The notes under the pieces are model-generated. The model was not told the DNA's origin, did not search any database, and saw only the letters and a list, made by a program, of their open reading frames with translations. From Patescibacteria group bacterium (lineage in GTDB: Bacteria > Patescibacteriota > Minisyncoccia > UBA6257 > UBA9933): 59,348 nt of DNA. This document shows positions 3,002 to 59,348 of this stretch, piece by piece (position 1 is the stretch's first letter; every line of letters begins with the position of its first letter). The stretch covers positions 39,754 to 99,101 of the forward strand of contig JBBUDV010000002.1 of NCBI GenBank assembly GCA_038057075.1, read 5' to 3'. The position numbers were made by a program, and so were the translations under genes.

Positions 3002-3013
3002 AAAAAATAATGC

Positions 3014-4108
3014 TTATCTAAAAAATTTCTTTAAATTTTCTCCAAAAATCCATTTCCTATGGCTAAAAAACACTTTATATATTTTATATAAAATTTTATT
3101 AACCCAAAGCGGCATTAAAAATAACGGCATGGCTATCCAAAATTCCGGAAAATTCCAATAATATTTAAACATTTTCCATCTTTTCCCTTTCGGCGTATCC
3201 CAACCGCCAATCCAACCAACTAACATACCTCGCCAAAGAGAAGCAAAATTTTTTGTTAAGATCCGACGGATAGCTCCCTTAGAAAATTTTCCATCAAATT
3301 CGTGAATAATATTATAAAAATTTATTCCGTAAACTTGAAACCCATCATTGTTAATTGTGTTTATTTTATCAGTTGTCTGCGACATTGTACGATTCCCCGT
3401 CAAGACAGCCGCTTTTAATTCTTCTTCTGATAACAAATGACAAATTACATAAGGCCCTCTCAAAAAATAAGATTTGCCGGGGCTAGAAATAATACCAAAA
3501 GTAATAACCATATTAGCGAAAGCCGAGCCAAGATACTTTTGAACAAGGCCAAAAAACGGTCGAACCATTTCCTTATTAAATATCAAAGTAGATACAAGGC
3601 CAATGTTTGTTCCTATATCATCCAGCGCTTCATCGCCATTCTTAAAGAATTTGTCAGGTTGGGACACGGCGAGTGTTCCGTTATTAATCACTAAAAAATT
3701 GGCCCAGACAAAATTAATATCTGAATTTTCTTTCACTAATTTCAAAACCCTATCTATGCCGCCCGGGGCCATTTCATCATCATCGCTAAACCACCATACA
3801 TATTTTCCTCTCGCTTTATCTACCAAAAAAAAGCAGGCTCTATCAAAACCAATCTTTTTCCCTTTAAAATACCTATAATTAATTTTAGAATCTGCAAGTT
3901 TCTTAAAAATCTCTACTGATTTTAAATTCACGCTATCGTCTCGAATTATTAATTCCGTTTCTGAAGTTAATTGCGGCAAAACCCCGCGAAGCATACGTTC
4001 AAAATCTTTGGGGCGATTATATGTAGGAACGCAAATACTTAATAATAGAGGGGAATGTTCTTTATTTTTGTTCTCGATGTTAGGATTTTCATTTAAATTT
4101 TCTTGCAT
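3014..4108 (-). CDS. family 2 glycosyltransferase
   Basis: LSICVPTYNRP N-terminal GT2 motif, IIRDDS and WWFSDDDE (DxD-like). Confidence 0.75.
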   Translation of the reverse strand: MQENLNENPNIENKNKEHSPLLLSICVPTYNRPKDFERMLRGVLPQLTSETELIIRDDSVNLKSVEIFKKLADSKINYRYFKGKKIGFDRACFFLVDKARGKYVWWFSDDDEMAPGGIDRVLKLVKENSDINFVWANFLVINNGTLAVSQPDKFFKNGDEALDDIGTNIGLVSTLIFNKEMVRPFFGLVQKYLGSAFANMVITFGIISSPGKSYFLRGPYVICHLLSEEELKAAVLTGNRTMSQTTDKINTINNDGFQVYGINFYNIIHEFDGKFSKGAIRRILTKNFASLWRGMLVGWIGGWDTPKGKRWKMFKYYWNFPEFWIAMPLFLMPLWVNKILYKIYKVFFSHRKWIFGENLKKFFR

Positions 4109-26892: not shown

Positions 26893-27471
26893 TTATCTCA
26901 ATTTTTTGTACGCCACTACTATCAAAAACGCCAGAGCGATGCCTAAAATTATAAACCTCAAATAATCCTGCATCGCAGACCAGTATTGCAAAGTTCCTAT
27001 AAGCAAAGATAATAAACCGCTGAACATAAAGCTCGTTGAAATCATTTGAACCGCTGTTATAAAGAAACTGCCGGTAATCGCCATTGTCCCGGCGACAATC
27101 CAAATGATAAACACGTTTCTTCTGTAAATATTGTTTATGCTGTCAAAATCTTTACGGCACGAATAATCCTGGTCGCACCACCCTGTTAGCTGCTGATTTT
27201 TTATTTCTATTATTGGAACATCCGCCGGTTTTCTGGAAACCGCGGGAGATTCATAACCGACATTCTCGGTCCATAAACCGCCGACATTTTCACAGGTTTC
27301 TCTTGTATTCAACGCTTGCTTCAGCCGTTCCGGCTTGCAAAAATTATTGTAATCCGGCGCTTTATAAAAAGTATTGATGCCGTAATTAATAAACAAATTA
27401 AAGATAATAATAATCGCCAACCCAAGCCCGAACTTTTTTAAATTAAAATTGAATATGTTTTTTAATTCCAT
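26893..27471 (-). CDS. membrane protein, Cys-containing extracytoplasmic loop
   Basis: 192 aa with an N-terminal TM and C-terminal TMs. The overlapping ORF 26882..27103 is out of frame and was rejected. Confidence 0.5.
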   Translation of the reverse strand: MELKNIFNFNLKKFGLGLAIIIIFNLFINYGINTFYKAPDYNNFCKPERLKQALNTRETCENVGGLWTENVGYESPAVSRKPADVPIIEIKNQQLTGWCDQDYSCRKDFDSINNIYRRNVFIIWIVAGTMAITGSFFITAVQMISTSFMFSGLLSLLIGTLQYWSAMQDYLRFIILGIALAFLIVVAYKKLR

Positions 27472-27600
27472 GTTTCAAATTAAAAAGTAAAAATATAAAA
27501 AGAAAAATAAAGTTTGAAATTAAAAATTGTTTTAATTATTTTACTTTTGAATTTTTCCTTGTCATTTTTAGTTTTTCATTTTCTGTTTTTAATTTTACCA

Positions 27601-35785: not shown

Positions 35786-36154
35786 TCACTTTAAGAGTTG
35801 TATAACCGGGGAATAGCCGATGATTTTATAGAATATGAAAATCGGGATTGCGGACCATCCCACAAACGCCGCTAAAGCCAGGGCCAAAAAAACCGCGTAA
35901 AAAACGCCGCCAAAAACCAGCCGCCAAAACCTGAAAAAAAATCCCAAAACATACCCTATAATGGAACTGTCTTGATAAAGCGGTTTGAATAAATTACGAC
36001 GGGTTATTTTAAAAGCGAAAAACTTGTCAAATTTTTCCAAAAGCGAAACAATGAAACCGGCGTAAATTTGAAAGCTCGTAAAATACCAATGCCTGATGAA
36101 ATTGGAAATTCTAAAAGATATTCTGTTTATCGCGAAAATCAAAAAATTACCCAC
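35786..36154 (-). CDS. small membrane protein, translationally adjacent to the Clp-like ATPase
   Basis: 122 aa with a GTG start. Its stop is 1 nt before the ATPase start. Confidence 0.5.
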   Translation of the reverse strand: MGNFLIFAINRISFRISNFIRHWYFTSFQIYAGFIVSLLEKFDKFFAFKITRRNLFKPLYQDSSIIGYVLGFFFRFWRLVFGGVFYAVFLALALAAFVGWSAIPIFIFYKIIGYSPVIQLLK

Positions 36155-36253
36155 GTTTCAAATTAAAAACTGAAAATGAAAAGCTGAAAATTAAATTTAA
36201 AATTTTACACTTCTCACTGTCATTTTTCATTTTTATTTTTCTATTTTTAATTT
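36155..36253 (-). repeat. 99-bp leader/promoter block identical to 48214..48312
   Basis: Base-by-base identical. It begins immediately upstream of the start codon in both copies. Confidence 0.9.
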
Positions 36254-36346
36254 TATTTATCCATTATACCCTATCCCTTTAAACAAACAAAAAGCCCCGT
36301 AACGGGGCTTTTTGTAAAAATATACGCTCTATGATATTTTTTATCG

Positions 36347-47619: not shown

Positions 47620-48213
47620 CTATCTTCCGTTCTTTCCTTTGATTATTTCGTCAATCGCTCCGTATTCTTTGGCATCCGCGGCTGTCATATAAAAATCCCT
47701 GTCCGTGTCTTTTTCAACCTTGGCAATCGGCTGGCCGGTGTGCTTGGCGATAATCGCGTTAAGTTTATCCTTAATCTTTACAATCTGCTTCGCGGTAATC
47801 GCAATGTCCGCGGCCTGACCCTCGGCTCCGCCCATCACCTGATGAAGCAAAATCTCCGCGTTGGGCAAAGCGAATCTTTTTCCTTTTTTGCCCGCTGCCA
47901 AAATAACGGCGCCCATTGAAGCAGCCATACCGACGCAAATAGTAGAAACATCCGGCTTAATATATTGCATGGTGTCATAAATCGCCATGCCGGCAGTCAC
48001 CACTCCGCCCGGAGAATTAACGTAAAGTTTAATGTCTTTTTTCGGGTCTTCGTGTTCCAAAAACAAAAGTTGCGCGATAATCGCATTGGCAACCTGGTCG
48101 TTAATCGCTCCGCCGAGAAAAATTATCCGTTCTTTAAGCAATCGCGAATAAATATCATACGCGCGCTCGCCGTTCATTGTTTTTTCTATAACTGTCGGGA
48201 TTAATATTTCCAT
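47620..48213 (-). CDS. clpP: ATP-dependent Clp protease proteolytic subunit
   Basis: [23 protein letters not shown] (Ser nucleophile), LHQVMGG (His). Confidence 0.92.
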
Positions 48214-48312
48214 GTTTCAAATTAAAAACTGAAAATGAAAAGCTGAAAATTAAATTTAAAATTTTACACTTCTCACTGTCATTTTTCATTTTTATTTTTC
48301 TATTTTTAATTT
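48214..48312 (-). repeat. second copy of the 99-bp leader/promoter block (identical to 36155..36253)
   Basis: Identical over 99 nt. Divergence begins at 48313 versus 36254. Confidence 0.9.
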
Positions 48313-48349
48313 CTTTAATAGTATACCAATCAAACAAAATTAATCAAGC

Positions 48350-54602: not shown

Positions 54603-54701
54603 TAGCCTGCCCAGTTAGAAATAAATAGGGGTGAAAACATGGAATATAGCAATATAAAAAATAATACGATTGATTAATAATTACGTATAAATTTCTATCA
54701 G

Positions 54702-54999
54702 GGTGCTCAATTCTAAACTTTGCACGAACCCATTTTGAGCGGAACGACTGAACCGCCCCGCCGCCGCTCGCTAACGCTCGCCACACCACAGAAAAGTTTT
54801 GTTCGCATTTTTTGATTTGCGCGCGACGGATTTTTTCTTCTAAAAGGAAAACAAAACTTTTCTGTGGTGTCCTGCTCTGACCGAGCAGGCGGCGGGGCTC
54901 TGCGGACTTCGCTCGGACGGCTCGGCATTCCTCCCCCCAACCCCCTCCTGCCGAGCCGTCCTCGCTTCGGCAAAAGGTTTTTTCGGCGGAAAAATTCAT
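54702..54999 (-). repeat. left arm of a perfect 298-bp inverted repeat (GC-rich structured element)
   Basis: Exact reverse complement of 59001..59298, verified position by position. Starts 3 nt downstream of the tRNA-Arg 3' end in the same sense. Confidence 0.95.
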
Positions 55000-55002
55000 C
55001 AG

Positions 55003-55074
55003 CACCCTCGGCAGGATTCGAACCCGCAAGTCCTCATTAGAACAGAGGCAGTTTATCCATTAGCTTACGAGGGC
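55003..55074 (-). tRNA. tRNA-Arg (anticodon TCT)
   Basis: Manual cloverleaf: GCCCUCG acceptor, CCUCU-GUUCUAA-UGAGG anticodon arm (U-U at 31/39), GCGGG-UUCGAAU-CCUGC T arm. CCA is not encoded. Confidence 0.8.
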
Positions 55075-55164
55075 AAAGATAAAGAAGCGCACAAGTGCGC
55101 TGAATAATCTTTAGCTTCTTTTCCTCGTAAGCAAAAACATAATTGCATATTAGCAAAAACAGAA

Positions 55165-55185
55165 AAGCCTTGCAATGCAAGGCTT
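55165..55185 (-). terminator. terminator of the small HNH gene pair
   Basis: AGCCTTGCA-a-TGCAAGGCT followed by TTTCTGTTTTT in minus sense. Confidence 0.65.
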
Positions 55186-55300
55186 CTGCCGAGGGTGCGC
55201 CGGTCGTTCGCCATCTCATCCAAGCCGGACAGCAATTTTTTCCTGCGGATAATTCTCAGGCGATCAGGCTCTAACTACTGGGTCGCTTTTTCGAAGTACC

Positions 55301-55561
55301 CTATTTACCTTTGTGTTGGGTCTTTGCGCCTTTTTCGCGGTTCTCTTCCCAATGGAGTGGCTGTAGATTTCTCAACTGATCACTTCCACCCTTATCTTTG
55401 GGGTTTTTATGATCAATCTCCCAGCCATATTCTCCCTCTGTGCCATAAGAAGCGAAACGGATTTTATTGCCGTAAGTATCCTTTCTCCAAACATCAGTGT
55501 CTTTGCCCTTCATTTCTTTTGCCTTGTCCCAAACTTCCTCAATTAGTTTCTTTGAAGCCAT
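55301..55561 (-). CDS. small HNH-family nuclease-like protein
   Basis: 86 aa. WEIDHKNPKDKGGSDQLRNLQPLHWEENREKG is an HNH (His-Me finger) motif. Confidence 0.65.
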   Translation of the reverse strand: MASKKLIEEVWDKAKEMKGKDTDVWRKDTYGNKIRFASYGTEGEYGWEIDHKNPKDKGGSDQLRNLQPLHWEENREKGAKTQHKGK

Positions 55562-55624
55562 AGATTGATTGGGTGCTATTGGTTAATAATTTCGACCTTT
55601 TTCATATCTACCATCTGTGTACCT

Positions 55625-55912
55625 TCAACCACAAGTTTGACTGGTGTTTGCAGACACAAGAGCGATTGAGTCGCCAACCTCCAACAAACCCCTCGTCTGA
55701 CGGTTATGTTCACTGCACAGTGGAATAATGTACCAATTTTTGTCGTATGAACTGTCCTTTTGGACATGGGCACCGACCTCGGGCTTTTTAGTACAGCTTT
55801 TTTCCGGGCAATAAGTTTGGAGCGATTGGCGACTGTAGTTTTTCCAGTGATCCAACCAACTCCCGCATTTGCAGGAATTATCGCTTGTTCCATTGATATT
55901 GTTTACTTTCAT
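55625..55912 (-). CDS. small Cys/His-rich zinc-finger protein, possibly a His-Me-finger nuclease
   Basis: 95 aa. CKCGSWLDHW ... CPEKSC ... GAHV ... IIPLCSEHN. Preferred over the overlapping out-of-frame ORF 55576..55893. Confidence 0.5.
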   Translation of the reverse strand: MKVNNINGTSDNSCKCGSWLDHWKNYSRQSLQTYCPEKSCTKKPEVGAHVQKDSSYDKNWYIIPLCSEHNRQTRGLLEVGDSIALVSANTSQTCG

Positions 55913-56054
55913 ATTGATTCTTTTGTTTGAGTTAATTTTTTTGTACTCGCCGTCGACCTTATGGTCTTTTCAGATCATCGGGAATGCTTATATATTAAGC
56001 GGCTAAATAAAATCTGTCAACTCTGTCATACTTTAATTGCCTGTGGATAACTTT

Positions 56055-56083
56055 TTGCATATCTTTGACATATCCACTATAAT
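56055..56083 (+). promoter_or_regulatory. sigma70 promoter giving a leaderless LexA-like transcript
   Basis: TTGCAT (56055..56060), a 17-nt spacer, TATAAT (56078..56083), and the ATG at 56090. CATATC is repeated in the spacer. Confidence 0.55.
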
Positions 56084-56089
56084 ATCAAT

Positions 56090-56722
56090 ATGCATACAAT
56101 ACAAGAAAAACTACTCAAAGTGATTGATGATAAGAATATTGGCGGTCTCGCACTGCGCCAGGTCGGAGAGTTGATAGGAGAAAAACTTCCCCAAAAAATT
56201 AAACACCATCTCTCCCAGCTGGAGAGAAAGGGTTTTATTTTGATCGATAGAAAAAATAAAAAAATCAGCAGAATTAGTAACAAAGCAAAGGCTGGAGATA
56301 TTTTTGTTTCAATTCCAATAGTCGGTGCCGCTAATTGTGGCCCGGCAACTATTTACGCTGATCAAAATATTGAAGGATATTTAAAAATATCCAAACGCCT
56401 TGCTCCAAACAAAAAAAGTATTTTCGCTTTAAGAGCGGAGGGTAATTCTCTAAACAAAGCAGACATTGGTGGCAAGAATGTGGAGAGTGGAGATTTTGTT
56501 ATTGTAGATAGCGAAAACACATCACCATGCGATGGCGATTATGTTGTATCTGTTATTGATGGCATGGCTAATATAAAAAAATACCGTTTGGATACGGATA
56601 ATTCTAGAATTGCACTTCTATCAGAATCAACGCAAGAATATTCGCCAATCTTTATTCATGAAAATGATGATTTTAGAATAAGTGGCAAAGTTGTTGAGGT
56701 TGTGAAGAATATCGGGCAATAA
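56090..56722 (+). CDS. LexA-like repressor (wHTH plus S24 self-cleaving peptidase domain)
   Basis: N-terminal LexA-type wHTH. Candidate cleavage site VGAANCGP (Cys-Gly, as in UmuD). Ser in EGNSL and Lys in ANIKKY. Confidence 0.75.
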   Translation: MHTIQEKLLKVIDDKNIGGLALRQVGELIGEKLPQKIKHHLSQLERKGFILIDRKNKKISRISNKAKAGDIFVSIPIVGAANCGPATIYADQNIEGYLKISKRLAPNKKSIFALRAEGNSLNKADIGGKNVESGDFVIVDSENTSPCDGDYVVSVIDGMANIKKYRLDTDNSRIALLSESTQEYSPIFIHENDDFRISGKVVEVVKNIGQ

Positions 56723-56748
56723 TATGCTAAAATAGGATTATAGATTTT

Positions 56749-57894
56749 ATGAAGAAAAAAGAAATCAAATTTAGGTTAGCGGAATTGTTTTCTGGCCCCG
56801 GAGGACTCGCTCTCGGCGCAATCCGATCTTCCGTTGAGAATGACAATACTATTTATGGTATTGAGCCTATTTGGGCAAACGATTATGATGCCGATACCTG
56901 TAAAACATACGCTCGCAATATTCACAACGGAAATGAAAAAGGTGTTGTTTGCGCCCCTGTTCAAGAAATAGATTTTGAAAAAGTACCAAAGTTTGATGTC
57001 CTTGCCTTCGGATTTCCTTGCAATGATTTTAGTGTTGTCGGTGAGCAAAAAGGTTTTGACGGAAAATTTGGCCCCCTTTATTCTCACGGAGTCAGAGCAA
57101 TAAACACACACAATCCAAAATGGTTCATTGCAGAAAATGTTAGTGGCTTACAAAGTGCAAATGGAGGCAATGCTTTTAAACAAATTTTGAAAGACCTCGG
57201 TTCGGCAGGAAAAGGTTATATTCTCACGCCACATTTATATAAGTTTGAAGAATATGGAGTGCCACAGCAAAGACACCGAATTGTCATTATCGGCATAAGA
57301 AAAGATTTGGGATTAAAATTCAAGGTTCCCGCTCCAACTACAAAATATAATTATGTGAGTGCGCGAGAGGCAATAGAAAATCCACGAATATCAGATAACG
57401 CGCAAAATCACGAACTTACCAAACAATCTGCTGGCGTTATAGAGCGACTAAAGCATATTCCCGCTGGAGAAAATGCTTGGTATGAGGGAATACCCAAACA
57501 TTTGAGACTGAATGTAAAAGGTGCTCGCATGAGTCAGATTTATAAAAGATTAGACCCCAAAAAACCCGCTTATACGATCACCGGAAGCGGAGGCGGTGGA
57601 ACGCATGTTTACCACTGGTCAGAACATCGTGCTCTTACAAACCGAGAACGAGCACGACTGCAGTCTTTCCCCGATAACTTTGTGTTTGAAGGCTCCAAAG
57701 AAAGCGCGAGAAAACAAATCGGTATGGCTGTGCCTCCAGTTGGAGCACGGGCAGTTATTTCTGCCGTGCTAAAGACTTTTGCCGGAATTCCTTACGAGTC
57801 GGTTGAGTCAAAACTTACTAATGGAGAAGCCAACGCACGCGAGATAGCGAGCCTGTTTGATGATGTAAAGATGGGAGCTATAGTTGCTTTATAA
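56749..57894 (+). CDS. DNA (cytosine-5)-methyltransferase
   Basis: Motif I LFSGPGGLALG, IV GFPCNDFS, VI ENV, VIII QQRHR, IX RERARLQSFPDNFVF, X GMAVPP. Confidence 0.92.
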   Translation: MKKKEIKFRLAELFSGPGGLALGAIRSSVENDNTIYGIEPIWANDYDADTCKTYARNIHNGNEKGVVCAPVQEIDFEKVPKFDVLAFGFPCNDFSVVGEQKGFDGKFGPLYSHGVRAINTHNPKWFIAENVSGLQSANGGNAFKQILKDLGSAGKGYILTPHLYKFEEYGVPQQRHRIVIIGIRKDLGLKFKVPAPTTKYNYVSAREAIENPRISDNAQNHELTKQSAGVIERLKHIPAGENAWYEGIPKHLRLNVKGARMSQIYKRLDPKKPAYTITGSGGGGTHVYHWSEHRALTNRERARLQSFPDNFVFEGSKESARKQIGMAVPPVGARAVISAVLKTFAGIPYESVESKLTNGEANAREIASLFDDVKMGAIVAL

Positions 57895-58717
57895 GTTCCT
57901 CCCAATCTTTTTTTGATTTTTTCAAGAGACCGGACTCTTTAACGAACCGGATACCATCAAATTCCTGTCCTGGAATTTCTTTTGCTTCTCTCAAATCAGT
58001 GTAGCGGCACCACCCCGCGACTTCGCAGGGTATATTTACAAAGTCCGGCATCAAATCCTTGTATTTTGAGTAATGAGGTTTGTTTTTTACTGCCTCGCTA
58101 ATTTCTTCTTTTGTCAGTCTCAGTAGGTGGTCGTCAGGAATGTCGGGGCGGCAGTAAATATAAATATCTGATCTACGCTCCTTGATTTTGATTTCATTTT
58201 CCCCAAGAACCAAAAACGCACTTTTGGGTTTGGACGATTTTATTCCAACACCAATTTTAGGTGTTCTCATTTTTCCCTTATCCTCAACTCTGGTTATATC
58301 TTGGAGCACGATTTCATCACGAATATCAAAATCAAGTTCAATATTTAGACCAAATTCTCTTTTCAGAAATTTTTTAACAGCGACTTCTCCTAGTTGCCCC
58401 TTAACCCAGTTCGTGATTTTCTGTCCAAATTCTCGTTGCCGTCCTGTACCAAAGTCCGATTGGACATAGTTTCTAAAATGCTGTGCGAGGGCAAAATCTA
58501 AACACAACGCGTAGTCCTCTTTATCTAGTTCAACAGTTCTCCACACCAAGCCCTCTTTCCATTTACGAAGCACGCTCTCATCAAAATAAAATCTGCCTCT
58601 CCCGCCACTCCTTTCAAGACAGGGAAATTCTGCCGCACTTTTGAAGTAGTTATCAAAAGTCTTTTCATCAAGACCGAGAAATTCAACTGCTTCTTTTTTG
58701 GAAAGGATTTTTGGCAT
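57878..58717 (-). CDS. putative type II restriction endonuclease with an N-terminal HTH
   Basis: Assigned by position: it follows the C-protein gene, converges on the methyltransferase, and overlaps it by 17 nt. The N-terminus LSKKEAVEFLGLDEKTFDNY is HTH-like. The central region has D...(E/G)xK-type candidates but no secure catalytic motif. Confidence 0.5.
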   Translation of the reverse strand: MPKILSKKEAVEFLGLDEKTFDNYFKSAAEFPCLERSGGRGRFYFDESVLRKWKEGLVWRTVELDKEDYALCLDFALAQHFRNYVQSDFGTGRQREFGQKITNWVKGQLGEVAVKKFLKREFGLNIELDFDIRDEIVLQDITRVEDKGKMRTPKIGVGIKSSKPKSAFLVLGENEIKIKERRSDIYIYCRPDIPDDHLLRLTKEEISEAVKNKPHYSKYKDLMPDFVNIPCEVAGWCRYTDLREAKEIPGQEFDGIRFVKESGLLKKSKKDWEELIKQL

Positions 58718-58719
58718 AG

Positions 58720-58941
58720 TTATTTTATGAAAAAGGAAATGTCTTTTTTGTAGATATTTGCAAACTTTTTAATCTCTGCAACATCAAGCCGTCTTTCGCC
58801 GGACTCGATTTTTGAGATATATGACTGCGGTTTACCGAGTTTTTCGGCAACCTCTTGCTGGGCAAGCCCAGCCTCAATTCGCGCTGTTTTTAAGCGTTCT
58901 ATGATGTCTTTATAGTCTTTTGTATAAATAGACTTGCCCAT
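58720..58941 (-). CDS. XRE-family HTH controller (C) protein
   Basis: 73 aa. LAQQEVAEKLGKPQSYISKIESGERRLD. Its stop lies 2 nt before the endonuclease start. Confidence 0.75.
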   Translation of the reverse strand: MGKSIYTKDYKDIIERLKTARIEAGLAQQEVAEKLGKPQSYISKIESGERRLDVAEIKKFANIYKKDISFFIK

Positions 58942-58967
58942 ACTTATTTCTATGATATATCCTTTTA

Positions 58968-58976
58968 TGGTATAAT
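58968..58976 (+). promoter_or_regulatory. extended -10 promoter reading into the right repeat arm
   Basis: TGgTATAAT on the + strand, about 25 nt upstream of 59001. Confidence 0.4.
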
Positions 58977-58989
58977 CCCAAAATGGGAT
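58975..58989. promoter_or_regulatory. candidate C-box operator palindrome
   Basis: ATCCCAAAATGGGAT overlaps the putative -35 (TTGGGA) of the C-gene promoter. A TATCAT -10 lies about 10 nt upstream of the ATG. Confidence 0.4.
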
Positions 58990-59000
58990 ACAATGTATTT

Positions 59001-59298
59001 ATGAATTTTTCCGCCGAAAAAACCTTTTGCCGAAGCGAGGACGGCTCGGCAGGAGGGGGTTGGGGGGAGGAATGCCGAGCCGTCCGAGCGAAGTCCGCAG
59101 AGCCCCGCCGCCTGCTCGGTCAGAGCAGGACACCACAGAAAAGTTTTGTTTTCCTTTTAGAAGAAAAAATCCGTCGCGCGCAAATCAAAAAATGCGAACA
59201 AAACTTTTCTGTGGTGTGGCGAGCGTTAGCGAGCGGCGGCGGGGCGGTTCAGTCGTTCCGCTCAAAATGGGTTCGTGCAAAGTTTAGAATTGAGCACC
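59001..59298 (+). repeat. right arm of the perfect 298-bp inverted repeat
   Basis: Reverse complement of 54702..54999. Internal 13-bp, 11-bp and 21-bp stems are described in the findings. Confidence 0.95.
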
Positions 59299-59348
59299 AG
59301 ATAATACTTTCACGATTTTTGGGGGAGGTTGCCTCGCCGCTTCGCGGC

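Follow-up and report, generated by a model that had tools for sequence, protein, structure and literature searches.

Inverted repeats around a restriction-modification cassette in a Patescibacteria genome: probable parts of a tRNA-directed integrative islet

The two arms of a long inverted repeat in a Patescibacteria genome very probably belong to an integrative islet of about 6.5 kb that encodes a large serine recombinase (LSR) and was placed by this enzyme directly behind tRNA-Ile(TAT) and upstream of a DUF192 gene. Islands of this type are widespread in Patescibacteria and to date apparently not described. The window, i.e. the whole stretch of 59,348 nucleotides that was analysed, contains both arms (54702-54999 and 59001-59298). 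They are 298 nt long, 100% complementary and separated by 4001 nt, as the preliminary description had reported. On the plus strand the order is DUF192 (leftward), host DNA F, the dinucleotide GC, left arm (-), tRNA-Arg, two small ORFs taken for HNH genes, a LexA-like gene, methyltransferase, endonuclease, XRE gene, right arm (+), GC, the repeat S (+), LSR (rightward), S (-), GC and tRNA-Ile (-). In this study, we show at the level of sequence the attachment sites with their logic, the occupied and the empty site, the recurrence of the architecture, and the LSR reading frame that runs through S(-) and across attL.

The recombinase and its attachment sites

The preliminary description had seen no integrase or invertase beside the cassette. 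This is incorrect: only 155 bp separate the right arm from the start of the LSR gene, which was missed because the window stops short of it. Its ATG lies at window-equivalent position 59454, 106 bp past the window end, in the extending contig L004. The protein encoded there has Resolvase and Recombinase domains; full-length homologues also carry a Zn_ribbon_recom domain, and the serine of the YARKS motif is invariant. No named LSR model of NCBIfam matches the protein above its cut-off. Since a recombinase is encoded in cis, mobilisation of the cassette in trans need not be invoked. No recombination directionality factor was identified for the element.

The last approximately 45 nt of each arm are assigned as a P-type half-site of the LSR (54707..54750 on the minus strand, …TCAAAATGGGTTCGTGCAAAGTTTAGAATTGA, and 59250..59293 on the plus strand), the sole part of the arm that is conserved across the family. 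The remaining 250 nt or so of the left arm (54702..54999, minus strand) are variable and hairpin-rich. The first approximately 25 nt of S read as the mirror image, P'. S measures about 130 nt; its first 53 nt (59296..59348, plus strand, ACCAGATAATACTTTCACGA…) form the P' arm side within the window, and it continues to about 59420. Right arm (59001..59298, plus strand) and S thus make up a complete dyad-symmetric attP, located between the XRE and LSR genes and in LSR sense. By the same reading, left arm plus F corresponds to attR, and tRNA-Ile plus S(-) to attL. The minus strand of the left arm has the same sense as the right arm and points out of the element toward DUF192.

These assignments come from aligning the three junctions, a (left arm and F), b (right arm and S) and c (tRNA-Ile and S), with the empty site. 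All four align on one GC, which is also where the dyad centre of the attP motif falls, and which we place at 54705..54706 (-) in attR and at 59294..59295 (+) in the internal attP. To the left of this GC, b is identical to a; to the right, b is identical to c. Junction a departs from b from F outward. F (54603..54704, minus strand, from the crossover to the DUF192 start codon, beginning ACC-CTGATAG) is host DNA from the far flank and represents B' of the attB before insertion. It starts with a terminator hairpin in many other loci, and a conserved motif was not found in it, which is unusual for an attB of two half-sites.

The crossover falls at positions 71-72 of the tRNA, whose discriminator and CCA-like end are restored by S. 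GTTCG of the right arm begins at 59271, 23 nt ahead of the crossover. Generally, the distance from the start of TTCG to the crossover is 22-23 nt in the arms versus 17 nt in the T-loop of the tRNAs; the difference is 5 bp in 16 loci and 6 bp in 25. In serine integrases the zinc-ribbon motif is shifted by 5 bp between attP and attB (PMC3783163), and the observed shift fits this expected difference.

The occupied tRNA end was observed in contig L103 from the window's own population, which contains a 224-aa gene, tRNA-Ile, a directly abutting S copy (99% identical) and the 3' end of the LSR gene converging on the tRNA. The inverted S copy forms the 3' end of the LSR gene. Comparison with a cassette-free relative (contigs L095 and L096), as the preliminary description had proposed, yielded the order FtsH, 225-aa gene, tRNA-Ile, DUF192, yebC, ruvC, with 4 nt from tRNA to DUF192. 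This is the empty site. In the window's own population neither a circular intermediate nor an empty site was seen. A circular form would be integrated by the LSR through an attP rebuilt from left arm and S(-).

Two adjacent transposon-like units could be imagined instead, an IS-like S-LSR-S unit and a non-autonomous arm-cargo-arm unit with the LSR acting as transposase. Each of them has inverted repeats of its own at both ends, LSR coding sequence takes up the whole interval from one S copy to the other, and at locus L076 an LSR unit without arms lies between two convergent tRNA-Leu genes. This reading is very improbable. A target-site duplication is absent, the flanks obey attP/attL/attR logic with a single shared dinucleotide, and recombining inverted ends can only invert, not excise. 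Moreover, both units are missing together from the empty site of the relative, and L076 is equally explained by an internal attP that recombined with a second tRNA gene.

Recurrence, assembly and orientation

The layout arm(-), cargo, XRE, arm(+), S, LSR, S(-), tRNA is repeated at about 50 other Patescibacteria loci. It therefore consists of two nested pairs of inverted repeats, equal to an inverted duplicate of a whole attP, and gene conversion between the inverted copies may keep them nearly identical. Of the 59 loci that possess an S repeat, 50 have the 3' end of a tRNA or tmRNA at the outer end of S(-). In all 59 the LSR frame stays open throughout S(-), whereas the other two frames do so in 32 and 12, and the LSR tail encoded in S(-) carries a conserved motif. 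An arm HMM detected the proximal (+) copy at nearly all loci; at about 17 of them it also detected an inverted distal copy, which lies 1.4-8.4 kb upstream. Where the upstream sequence reached 3 kb or more (31 loci), an HMM of the shorter P half-site detected both copies in 15 cases, and across 80 loci this HMM gave no match outside the proximal (+) and distal (-) positions. The closed genome CP060229.1 has two elements of this kind; the repeats are intact in one of them and decayed in the other. The elements range from about 3.5 to 11 kb. At least 581 matches to the family were obtained among GTDB species genomes, as against 3 among 2.9 million viral contigs, which argues that the family is not a phage.

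Within the window the 298-nt sequence occurs in two copies only, with a GC content of 0.52-0.56 compared with about 0.30-0.45 in the surroundings. An assembly artefact had to be considered, either through collapse of a multi-copy repeat or through a chimeric hairpin join where a contig ends: the right arm lies only 50 bp from the window end, a de Bruijn contig makes its two repeat copies identical by construction, many assemblies are broken by repeats of this family, and the related contig L012 is itself a palindromic join. The earlier guess of a repeat that breaks assemblies was correct, since many MAG contigs of the family terminate within an arm or S. Nevertheless an artefact is hardly conceivable here. 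Every junction recurs in assemblies made independently from different samples. In such assemblies of Hainich groundwater, short contigs end exactly at the arm edges plus a k-1 overhang (54702+54, 54702+29, 54999, 59298), and two further contigs of 99.6 kb (180x and 199x coverage) cross both arms and span the whole structure in the same order. At least 15 further genomes, one of them a closed chromosome, show this architecture. Finally, many repeat pairs of the family are only 77-99% identical and therefore separate copies; graph collapse accounts for part of the repeat identity in short-read MAGs, still 30 of the 59 S pairs are below 99.5% identity. Together, these reproduced junctions, spanning contigs, recurrences and imperfect pairs effectively refute an artefact.

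The arms could also delimit an invertible, phase-variable segment, in which the serine recombinase or homologous recombination flips the 4-kb cassette at the arms and the LSR gene at the S copies and thereby switches expression, comparable to phage Mu G, P1 C or the 2-micron plasmid. The repeats are long and perfect, a serine recombinase adjoins them, and both unique segments have symmetric borders, so that every isomer retains intact genes. Rare flipped forms exist: the cargo is inverted in L011 and L066, and the LSR is co-directional with the tRNA in L086. Concerted evolution of the repeat copies implies that they do recombine. In P1 C and Mu G, too, inverted repeats bracket about 3-4 kb, with a serine recombinase gene just outside one of them. 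Cin and Gin are small invertases that work with an enhancer and Fis, both orientations occur in populations, and the segments carry alternative tail-fibre genes. In contrast, the enzyme of the islet is of the large integrase type, with attP/attB/attL/attR logic and an empty site, rather than a small Hin/Gin invertase, and its cargo is unrelated. The XRE gene adjoins the proximal arm in 18 of 20 loci, the LSR is convergent with the tRNA in 50 loci versus one or two exceptions, and a single orientation of 55000-59000 was found in three long high-coverage contigs of this population. This fixed orientation disfavours frequent inversion. L011 is a contig of 4x coverage, whose orientation the assembler may have chosen arbitrarily. 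The inversion proposed in the preliminary description thus finds no support in these data, and we regard a phase-variable switch as quite unlikely.

Folding of the arms and content of the cassette

Identical 86-aa shadow ORFs are present in both arms, as noted before; no such protein is on record, and a Pfam search of the arm ORF gave no match. The arms might instead encode a structured non-coding RNA in two copies, such as a leader or small RNA with a role in recombinase regulation or in insulation of the cassette, or even one that guides the recombinase. Predicted folding is strong on both strands (z = -5.9 and -7.0), and in a 9-sequence subfamily alignment compensatory double changes occur in 14 of 45 consensus pairs, which would be compatible with the structured element suggested initially. 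Both copies are also placed for same-sense transcription, one after tRNA-Arg or the cargo operon, the other as LSR 5' leader. As G-U cells (9) equal C-A/A-C cells (9), neither strand is favoured, and palindromes in the DNA would account for the pattern just as well as an RNA. A search of Rfam yielded no family match even at E up to 10, and beyond the terminal 45 nt or so both length and sequence of the arm vary across the family. The variable part matches the cognate tRNA end no better than non-cognate ends (mean longest match 6.3 versus 6.2 nt; p=0.48, p=0.39). Such an RNA is therefore unlikely. The subfamily hairpins are left unexplained by the attachment-site model. Nor does this model explain a duplication of 150-370 nt, since family-wide conservation covers only the last 45 nt or so of the arm.

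The cassette contains most of what had been annotated. tRNA-Arg(TCT) (55002-55074, minus strand) was confirmed on the cargo side, where it abuts the inner edge of the left arm, an adjacency absent from other members of the family. One of the two presumed His-Me/HNH ORFs is a small HNH protein (55301..55561, minus strand; PF01844, E=1.1e-6); the other, a 95-aa Cys/His-rich ORF (55625..55912, minus strand), has no family match. The LexA-like repressor with winged HTH and S24 peptidase (56090..56722, plus strand) matches PF00717 (4.7e-19) and TIGR00498 lexA (4.9e-26, below the cut-off of that model). The type II pair consists of a C5-cytosine methyltransferase of Dcm type (56749..57894, plus strand; PF00145 8e-72, PADLOC MTase_II 1.9e-116), and a putative restriction endonuclease (57878..58717, minus strand; PADLOC REase_II, 8.8e-23). 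The XRE-family HTH gene (58720..58941, minus strand; PF01381, 8e-16) adjoins the proximal arm divergently from the LSR gene, and orthologues take the same position in 17 other loci. The gene of the supposed C protein belongs to the conserved core of the element family. The cargo of other members comprises transporters, toxin-antitoxin genes and further genes; the restriction-modification, LexA and HNH genes would be interchangeable cargo. To call the cassette an undescribed restriction-modification organisation hence misread the unit, in which these genes are variable and the "controller" is constant.

Relation to known systems

With serine-integrase elements and prophages (A118/LI, Bxb1, phiC31; SCCmec CcrAB; XisF) the islet shares the Resolvase, Recombinase and zinc-ribbon architecture, a dyad-symmetric attP, hybrid attL and attR that share the central dinucleotide only, and a distal motif whose distance from the centre is 5-6 bp shorter in attB than in attP. 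Unlike them, it is tiny and no phage, its LSR stays below the cut-offs of the named models, its LSR frame crosses attL, and its integrated form retains a second attP, intact and inverted. The target differs as well: insertion takes place at the 3' ends of tmRNA and of numerous different tRNAs, and targeting of tRNA 3' ends is known mainly as a habit of tyrosine integrases.

The inferred excised circle would contain the site region (about 430 bp) twice in inverted orientation, and these copies would separate two unique segments, one of which encodes the recombinase. This layout resembles the yeast 2-micron plasmid, with FLP/FRT in two long inverted repeats, and engineered cassette exchange between inverted att sites. 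FLP of the 2-micron plasmid is a tyrosine enzyme. The recombinase of the islet belongs to the other class, the islet has no replication function, and flipping was not seen to be common.

As small site-specific cargo elements at tRNA genes of streamlined genomes, the islands resemble tRNA/tmRNA genomic islands and the tycheposons of Prochlorococcus, which likewise occur several per genome and carry cargo for transport, defence and similar functions. Tycheposons mostly have a lineage-specific tyrosine recombinase (910/937) plus replication modules, both of which the islands lack, and nested inverted repeats are not described for them (bioRxiv 10.1101/2020.12.28.424599).

An integrated LSR element has no need of an intact attP, an observation that counts against the model, and promoter-like sites were not predicted inside the arm. 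From its position between the divergent XRE and LSR genes, the internal attP (right arm plus S(+)) may mainly be operator or leader of the recombinase and only occasionally a second recombination site. The res site of Tn3/gamma-delta, which lies between the divergent tnpA and tnpR genes, is similarly an intergenic site of a serine recombinase, albeit one of three subsites and not a duplicate of attP. By this analogy the internal attP could serve as both recombination site and candidate operator, at which the LSR might regulate its own gene as resolvase does at res.

Inverted repeats and the genes they enclose

The two arms, at 54702-54999 (-) and 59001-59298 (+), were confirmed by a repeat finder as inverted repeats of 298 nt with 100% complementarity and 4001 nt between them, and no third copy was found across the 59-kb window. 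Their reported GC-richness was likewise reproduced (0.52-0.56 versus about 0.30-0.45 in the surrounding region). The identical 86-aa shadow ORFs noted in the preliminary description are present, but match no protein record or Pfam family. Protein coding by the arm was considered in view of a 99-codon open frame and rejected, as the frame has no recorded protein or Pfam match and its composition looks non-protein.

The gene list proposed for the cassette largely stands. It comprises a tRNA-Arg(TCT) at 55002-55074 (-), a LexA-like S24 protein, a C5-methyltransferase (PADLOC MTase_II, 1.9e-116), an adjoining ORF of 279 aa which matches the PADLOC type II endonuclease model (REase_II, 8.8e-23), and an XRE helix-turn-helix (HTH) protein; PADLOC matched both the methyltransferase and the endonuclease gene of a type II restriction-modification (R-M) system. 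Of the two small ORFs taken for His-Me/HNH-type, one matches HNH (PF01844), the second Cys/His ORF having no family match. The XRE protein, previously called a C protein, matches Control_protein models weakly (2.8e-5) and generic HTH models more strongly. Between the HNH genes and tRNA-Arg, at 55086-55187 (-), are two strong terminator-like hairpins, so that tRNA-Arg and the left arm may form a separate transcription unit ending in F, the host DNA beyond the left arm towards DUF192. Elsewhere in the window, a 110-nt direct repeat (96% identity) unrelated to the arms occupies AT-rich intergenic DNA at 36151-36260 and 48210-48319, 12 kb apart, with a third related copy near 27463-27597; a 102-nt direct repeat at 80% identity is found at 921-1022 and 3003-3104, 2 kb apart.

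Looking up the window's proteins in public assemblies yielded contigs that had been assembled independently from Hainich groundwater samples. Among these, short contigs end at the left arm's outer edge plus k-1 (54756 for k=55, 54731 for k=31), while others end at its inner edge, 54999, or begin at 59298, the right arm's outer edge. Such breakpoints are expected in a de Bruijn graph when a repeat truly has two copies. Two other contigs of 99.6 kb (180x, 199x) run from the left flank through arm, cassette and second arm in the order of the window. A planted or artefactual repeat had been suspected from the inner edges 54999 and 59001, which are symmetric about 57000; we dismissed it because independent assemblies break exactly there. 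Arm positions 119, 129, 172 and 174 (59119, 59129, 59172 and 59174 in the right arm; 54881, 54871, 54828 and 54826 in the left) vary among the Hainich assemblies and define at least four haplotypes. The variants agree between the two arms of each contig, which proves nothing, since graph collapse forces such agreement in short-read assemblies. A small hairpin lies between positions 119 and 129.

The arm folds strongly on both strands, and of the 45 consensus pairs in the window's subfamily, 14 have compensatory double changes. G-U and C-A cells are equally frequent (nine each) and thus favour neither strand for a putative arm RNA. Family-wide conservation is limited to the terminal 45 nt or so. 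No Rfam 15 family, including HEARO and tmRNA, matched the arm at gathering score, and only chance-level miRNA hairpins appeared at E values up to 10; a known RNA (RNase P, tmRNA, SRP, HEARO or others) was rejected on this basis, ARAGORN also finding no tmRNA. A bridge-RNA-like guide was considered as well: the arm has no excess complementarity or identity to the cognate tRNA end, its variable part gives no extra match to that tRNA, and a guide-RNA function is unlikely. The inner 250 nt or so may function as RNA or as a DNA palindrome.

A large serine recombinase and its element family

Contrary to the preliminary description, which saw no recombinase beside the cassette, an ORF for a large serine recombinase (LSR) begins 155 bp past the right arm. 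Contig L004, which extends the window by 911 bp, places its start at window-equivalent position 59454, and the protein begins MLKPKYFLYARKSTEDD…. The 268-aa N-terminal part matches PF00239 (2.6e-24) and PF07508 (2.5e-13), and full-length homologues (75-91% identity, about 490-580 aa) add the zinc ribbon PF13408; the Resolvase and Recombinase domains, together with the zinc ribbon of the homologues, identify the ORF as an LSR. Its Y-A-R-K-S motif, containing the nucleophilic Ser, is invariant. The C-terminal part was found on L103, a contig from the same population.

A profile search over one genome per GTDB species retrieved at least 581 loci of this LSR family, nearly all in Patescibacteria, and 80 were kept for analysis. 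A phage origin was rejected, the family being almost absent from viral contigs (three loci). For very many of the LSR genes the contig ends 100-450 bp away, and the element family accounts for many contig breaks in Patescibacteria MAGs. The megahit contig L012 (1-1989), bearing an LSR 97% identical to the window's, is a palindrome in which the reverse complement of the LSR part matches that part at 90%; a fold-back during assembly of a repeat-rich locus is the probable cause. Our full-text literature searches found nothing tying serine recombinases to Patescibacteria or CPR, and nothing specific on serine integrases targeting tRNA genes.

The arm goes with the recombinase, and the R-M cassette is not its owner. 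At locus L011 an LSR gene whose protein is 89% identical is directly preceded by an arm homologue (77% identity), whose central hairpin still pairs despite a different stem sequence. Iterative nhmmer searches located a same-sense arm copy ending about 150-200 nt ahead of the LSR start at almost every locus. Where enough upstream DNA was available, about 17 loci proved to have another copy, inverted and 1.4-8.4 kb further upstream. An HMM built from the arm's terminal 45 nt matched only at these proximal and distal positions across the 80 loci, with both copies in 15 of the 31 loci having at least 3 kb upstream. The stretch between proximal arm and LSR start, here called S (about 115-160 nt), recurs as an inverted copy directly after the LSR gene at 77-100% identity, and the outer end of this S(-) abuts the 3' end of an opposite-strand tRNA or tmRNA gene in 50 of 59 loci. 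Targets across the family are tRNA genes for Leu, Arg, Ala, Pro, Glu, Lys, Gly and Val, and tmRNA. These nested repeats give the family layout arm(-), cargo, arm(+), S(+), LSR, S(-), tRNA(-).

Besides the window, 17 loci have an XRE orthologue next to the proximal arm and divergent from the LSR; at L011 and L066 the XRE gene is at the distal end on the other strand. Most of the 17 XRE-bearing elements carry transporters, membrane proteins and toxin-antitoxin genes rather than R-M, and between close relatives the contents change among symporters, ABC transporters, zinc-ribbon membrane proteins, toxin-antitoxin, DUF3800 and R-M genes. This turnover marks the window's R-M, LexA and HNH genes as cargo. 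The R-M cassette bracketed by inverted repeats is thus cargo, and the object of interest is the element family with its mirrored attachment site. No gene resembling a recombination directionality factor (RDF) was recognised, XRE being the only conserved small gene. The closed 994,774-bp Nomurabacteria genome CP060229.1 holds two elements at different tRNAs (L041 and L055), one with repeats 100% and 98.5% identical, the other with repeats decayed to 80% and 77%. Two copies each are also present in four other MAGs (L038/L077, L023/L047, L020/L056 and L058/L083).

Attachment sites at tRNA genes

The relatives L095 and L096 share the gene order FtsH, a 225-aa gene, tRNA-Ile(TAT), 4 nt, DUF192, yebC and ruvC. 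In the window's own population (L103), an orthologous 224-aa gene and tRNA-Ile(TAT) are followed by S and then by the LSR 3' end on the other strand; this S measures 127 nt and is 99-100% identical to the S beside the right arm. In sister contigs the break falls 55, 30 or 127 nt inside S. The comparison of neighbourhoods proposed in the preliminary description therefore reveals an uninterrupted tRNA-Ile to DUF192 site in relatives, and the whole of about 6.5 kb, from S(-) to the left arm, as an insertion between these two genes. The comparison is between species, DUF192 of L095/L096 being 78% identical to the window's; in the window's own genome the empty site is predicted to read tRNA-Ile…GGCGC-ACCCTGATAG…DUF192. 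The anticodon TAT (UAU) is common to the window's population (L103:1336-1411) and the relative (L095:3998-4072); a UAU-anticodon tRNA-Ile is probably an unusual way of reading AUA in bacteria. In a Wolfebacteria contig (L093:27-6000, JACRKO010000004.1), a different six-gene set of about 5.9 kb, including DUF1573 and a heavy-metal P-type ATPase and with no recombinase called, lies between tRNA-Ile(TAT) and DUF192. This interval may be a general hotspot for variable DNA.

Each locus has three junctions: b (arm and S), c (tRNA and S) and a (distal arm and F). Junctions b and a agree up to a short core and part after it; b and c, conversely, are different before the core and the same beyond it; and a and c are in direct orientation. 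F often opens with an intrinsic-terminator hairpin, as expected of DNA that once followed a tRNA gene. For the window's element all four sites align on a single GC, the inferred crossover dinucleotide. Junction b reads …gggttcgtgcaaagtttagaattga GC accagataatactttcacg…; junction a has the same left side, then GC accctgatagaaattt…; junction c, on L103, reads …aaggttcgagtccttccaggc GC accagataatactttcacg…; and the empty site of L095 reads …ctggttcgaatccaggcacgc GC actaatggtaaaa…. Around the central GC of junction b, the left half TTCGTGCAAAGTTTAGAATTGA and the right half ACCAGATAATACTTTCACGA carry the mirror motifs AAAGT/ACTTT and TCGTG/CACGA. The mirror centred on GC and the alignment of the four sites together identify b as a dyad-symmetric attP, c as attL and a as attR. 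The tRNA receives its discriminator and CCA-like nucleotides from S.

The start of a TTCG motif is 22-23 nt away from the crossover in the arms but 17 nt away in the tRNAs, where it belongs to the T-loop; 16 loci show a shift of 5 bp and 25 loci one of 6 bp, and the window's own distances are 23 versus 18 nt. In serine integrases, the motif of the zinc-ribbon domain lies 5 bp nearer the centre in attB than in attP (Rutherford et al. 2013, PMC3783163). The matching shift of 5-6 bp marks the arm end as a P-type half-site, the B-type counterpart being the tRNA end. The arm might also be taken for a degenerate 3' end of a tRNA or tmRNA, GGTTCG and GCACC being common to both, but the spacing is 5-6 bp off and a T-stem is lacking, so that the arm end is better read as a P-type half-site. 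The serine integrases of this family appear to read the universally conserved T-arm and acceptor end of tRNAs and to repair the tRNA, a class of target of practical interest for integrase-based genome engineering.

A TIR or composite transposon is very unlikely, no transposase lying between the arms and no target-site duplication being present. The latter, as previously noted, is borne out by the element's flanks, which share only the crossover GC plus ACC, inverted rather than direct. Serine-integrase integrative elements are the closest known kind for mechanism, and tRNA-gene genomic islands and tycheposons for lifestyle. Tycheposons are defined by tyrosine recombinases and replication genes (bioRxiv 10.1101/2020.12.28.424599), whereas the window's element has an LSR, no tyrosine recombinase of the tycheposon lineage and no replication gene in its cargo. 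The family would be a main vehicle of accessory genes (R-M, toxin-antitoxin, transporters) in the tiny genomes of Patescibacteria.

Inversion and the mirrored attP

The closest parallels for geometry are the 2-micron plasmid, the P1 C segment and the Mu G segment. The 4-kb cassette or the LSR segment could be a site-specific invertible segment that flips frequently: inverted repeats bracket it, a recombinase gene is adjacent, and the geometry would permit inversion. Both orientations were sought among relatives and population contigs, and the canonical one dominates. The cargo is flipped in L011 (a 4x contig), but XRE is proximal, the canonical cargo orientation, in 18 of 20 loci. Likewise, the LSR of L086 (9791-11516) is co-directional with tRNA-Leu(tag), but the LSR is convergent on the tRNA in 50 loci, against one or two exceptions (L086, L076). 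All three long contigs of this population share one orientation, at consensus level, below which minority orientations are invisible. The recombinase itself, about 490-580 aa with recombinase and zinc-ribbon domains, differs from an invertase of about 190 aa with a C-terminal HTH. We therefore disfavour frequent inversion; the preliminary description had raised an invertible segment as one of three readings. At L076 (9798-11622) an S-LSR-S unit without an arm is flanked by two convergent tRNA-Leu genes, the arrangement that recombination of the internal attP with a second tRNA would produce. Both L076 and L086 suggest occasional use of the internal attP or the S repeat, with chromosomal inversions between tRNA genes as a possible outcome.

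An integrated serine-integrase element requires attL and attR alone; here an intact inverted attP, duplicated over about 430 bp, is retained between XRE and LSR in dozens of lineages. Current serine-integrase models predict neither this conserved inverted duplicate of the whole attP nor an integrase gene whose 3' end doubles as an attachment site with a mirror copy in the gene's own leader, and both pose a testable question on regulation or rearrangement. The repeat copies are near-identical within genomes and very divergent between genomes, which indicates concerted evolution, and S pairs fall below 99.5% identity in 30 of 59 loci. Decayed repeat pairs were examined for selection on the att cores, and their mismatches are spread near-evenly. 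Judging by its position, the internal attP copy would serve chiefly as operator and leader for the recombinase, our preferred reading; it may occasionally serve as a second recombination site, and gene conversion would homogenise it.

A bolder reading, which we think rather unlikely, is that the mirrored attP is no passive duplicate but a working part of a two-site serine-integrase system whose modules can be flipped, split or exchanged between tRNA genes. LSR module and cargo module would each be bounded by identical half-sites, allowing isomerisation of the 2-micron kind or a natural cassette exchange. The LSR would then be an integrase reading the tRNA T-arm, an unusually broad and portable target, and L076, L086 with its flipped LSR and L011 with its flipped cargo would be traces of such rearrangement.

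The LSR frame runs through S(-) without a stop in 59 of 59 loci (the other two frames are open in 32 and 12), stops 6-265 nt past the crossover within the antisense tRNA, and encodes a tail with a conserved KIGTN…DK..S…PWDF motif. The integrase gene therefore has the P' half-site as its 3' end, and S(+) is an inverted copy of the LSR coding end placed in the LSR's own leader. An LSR mRNA would carry S (window-equivalent 59296-59420) at its 5' end and the exact complement (L103:1412-1538) at its 3' end, about 127 nt, and the two could pair over a long range, a potential duplex that might restrict translation or attract RNase III.
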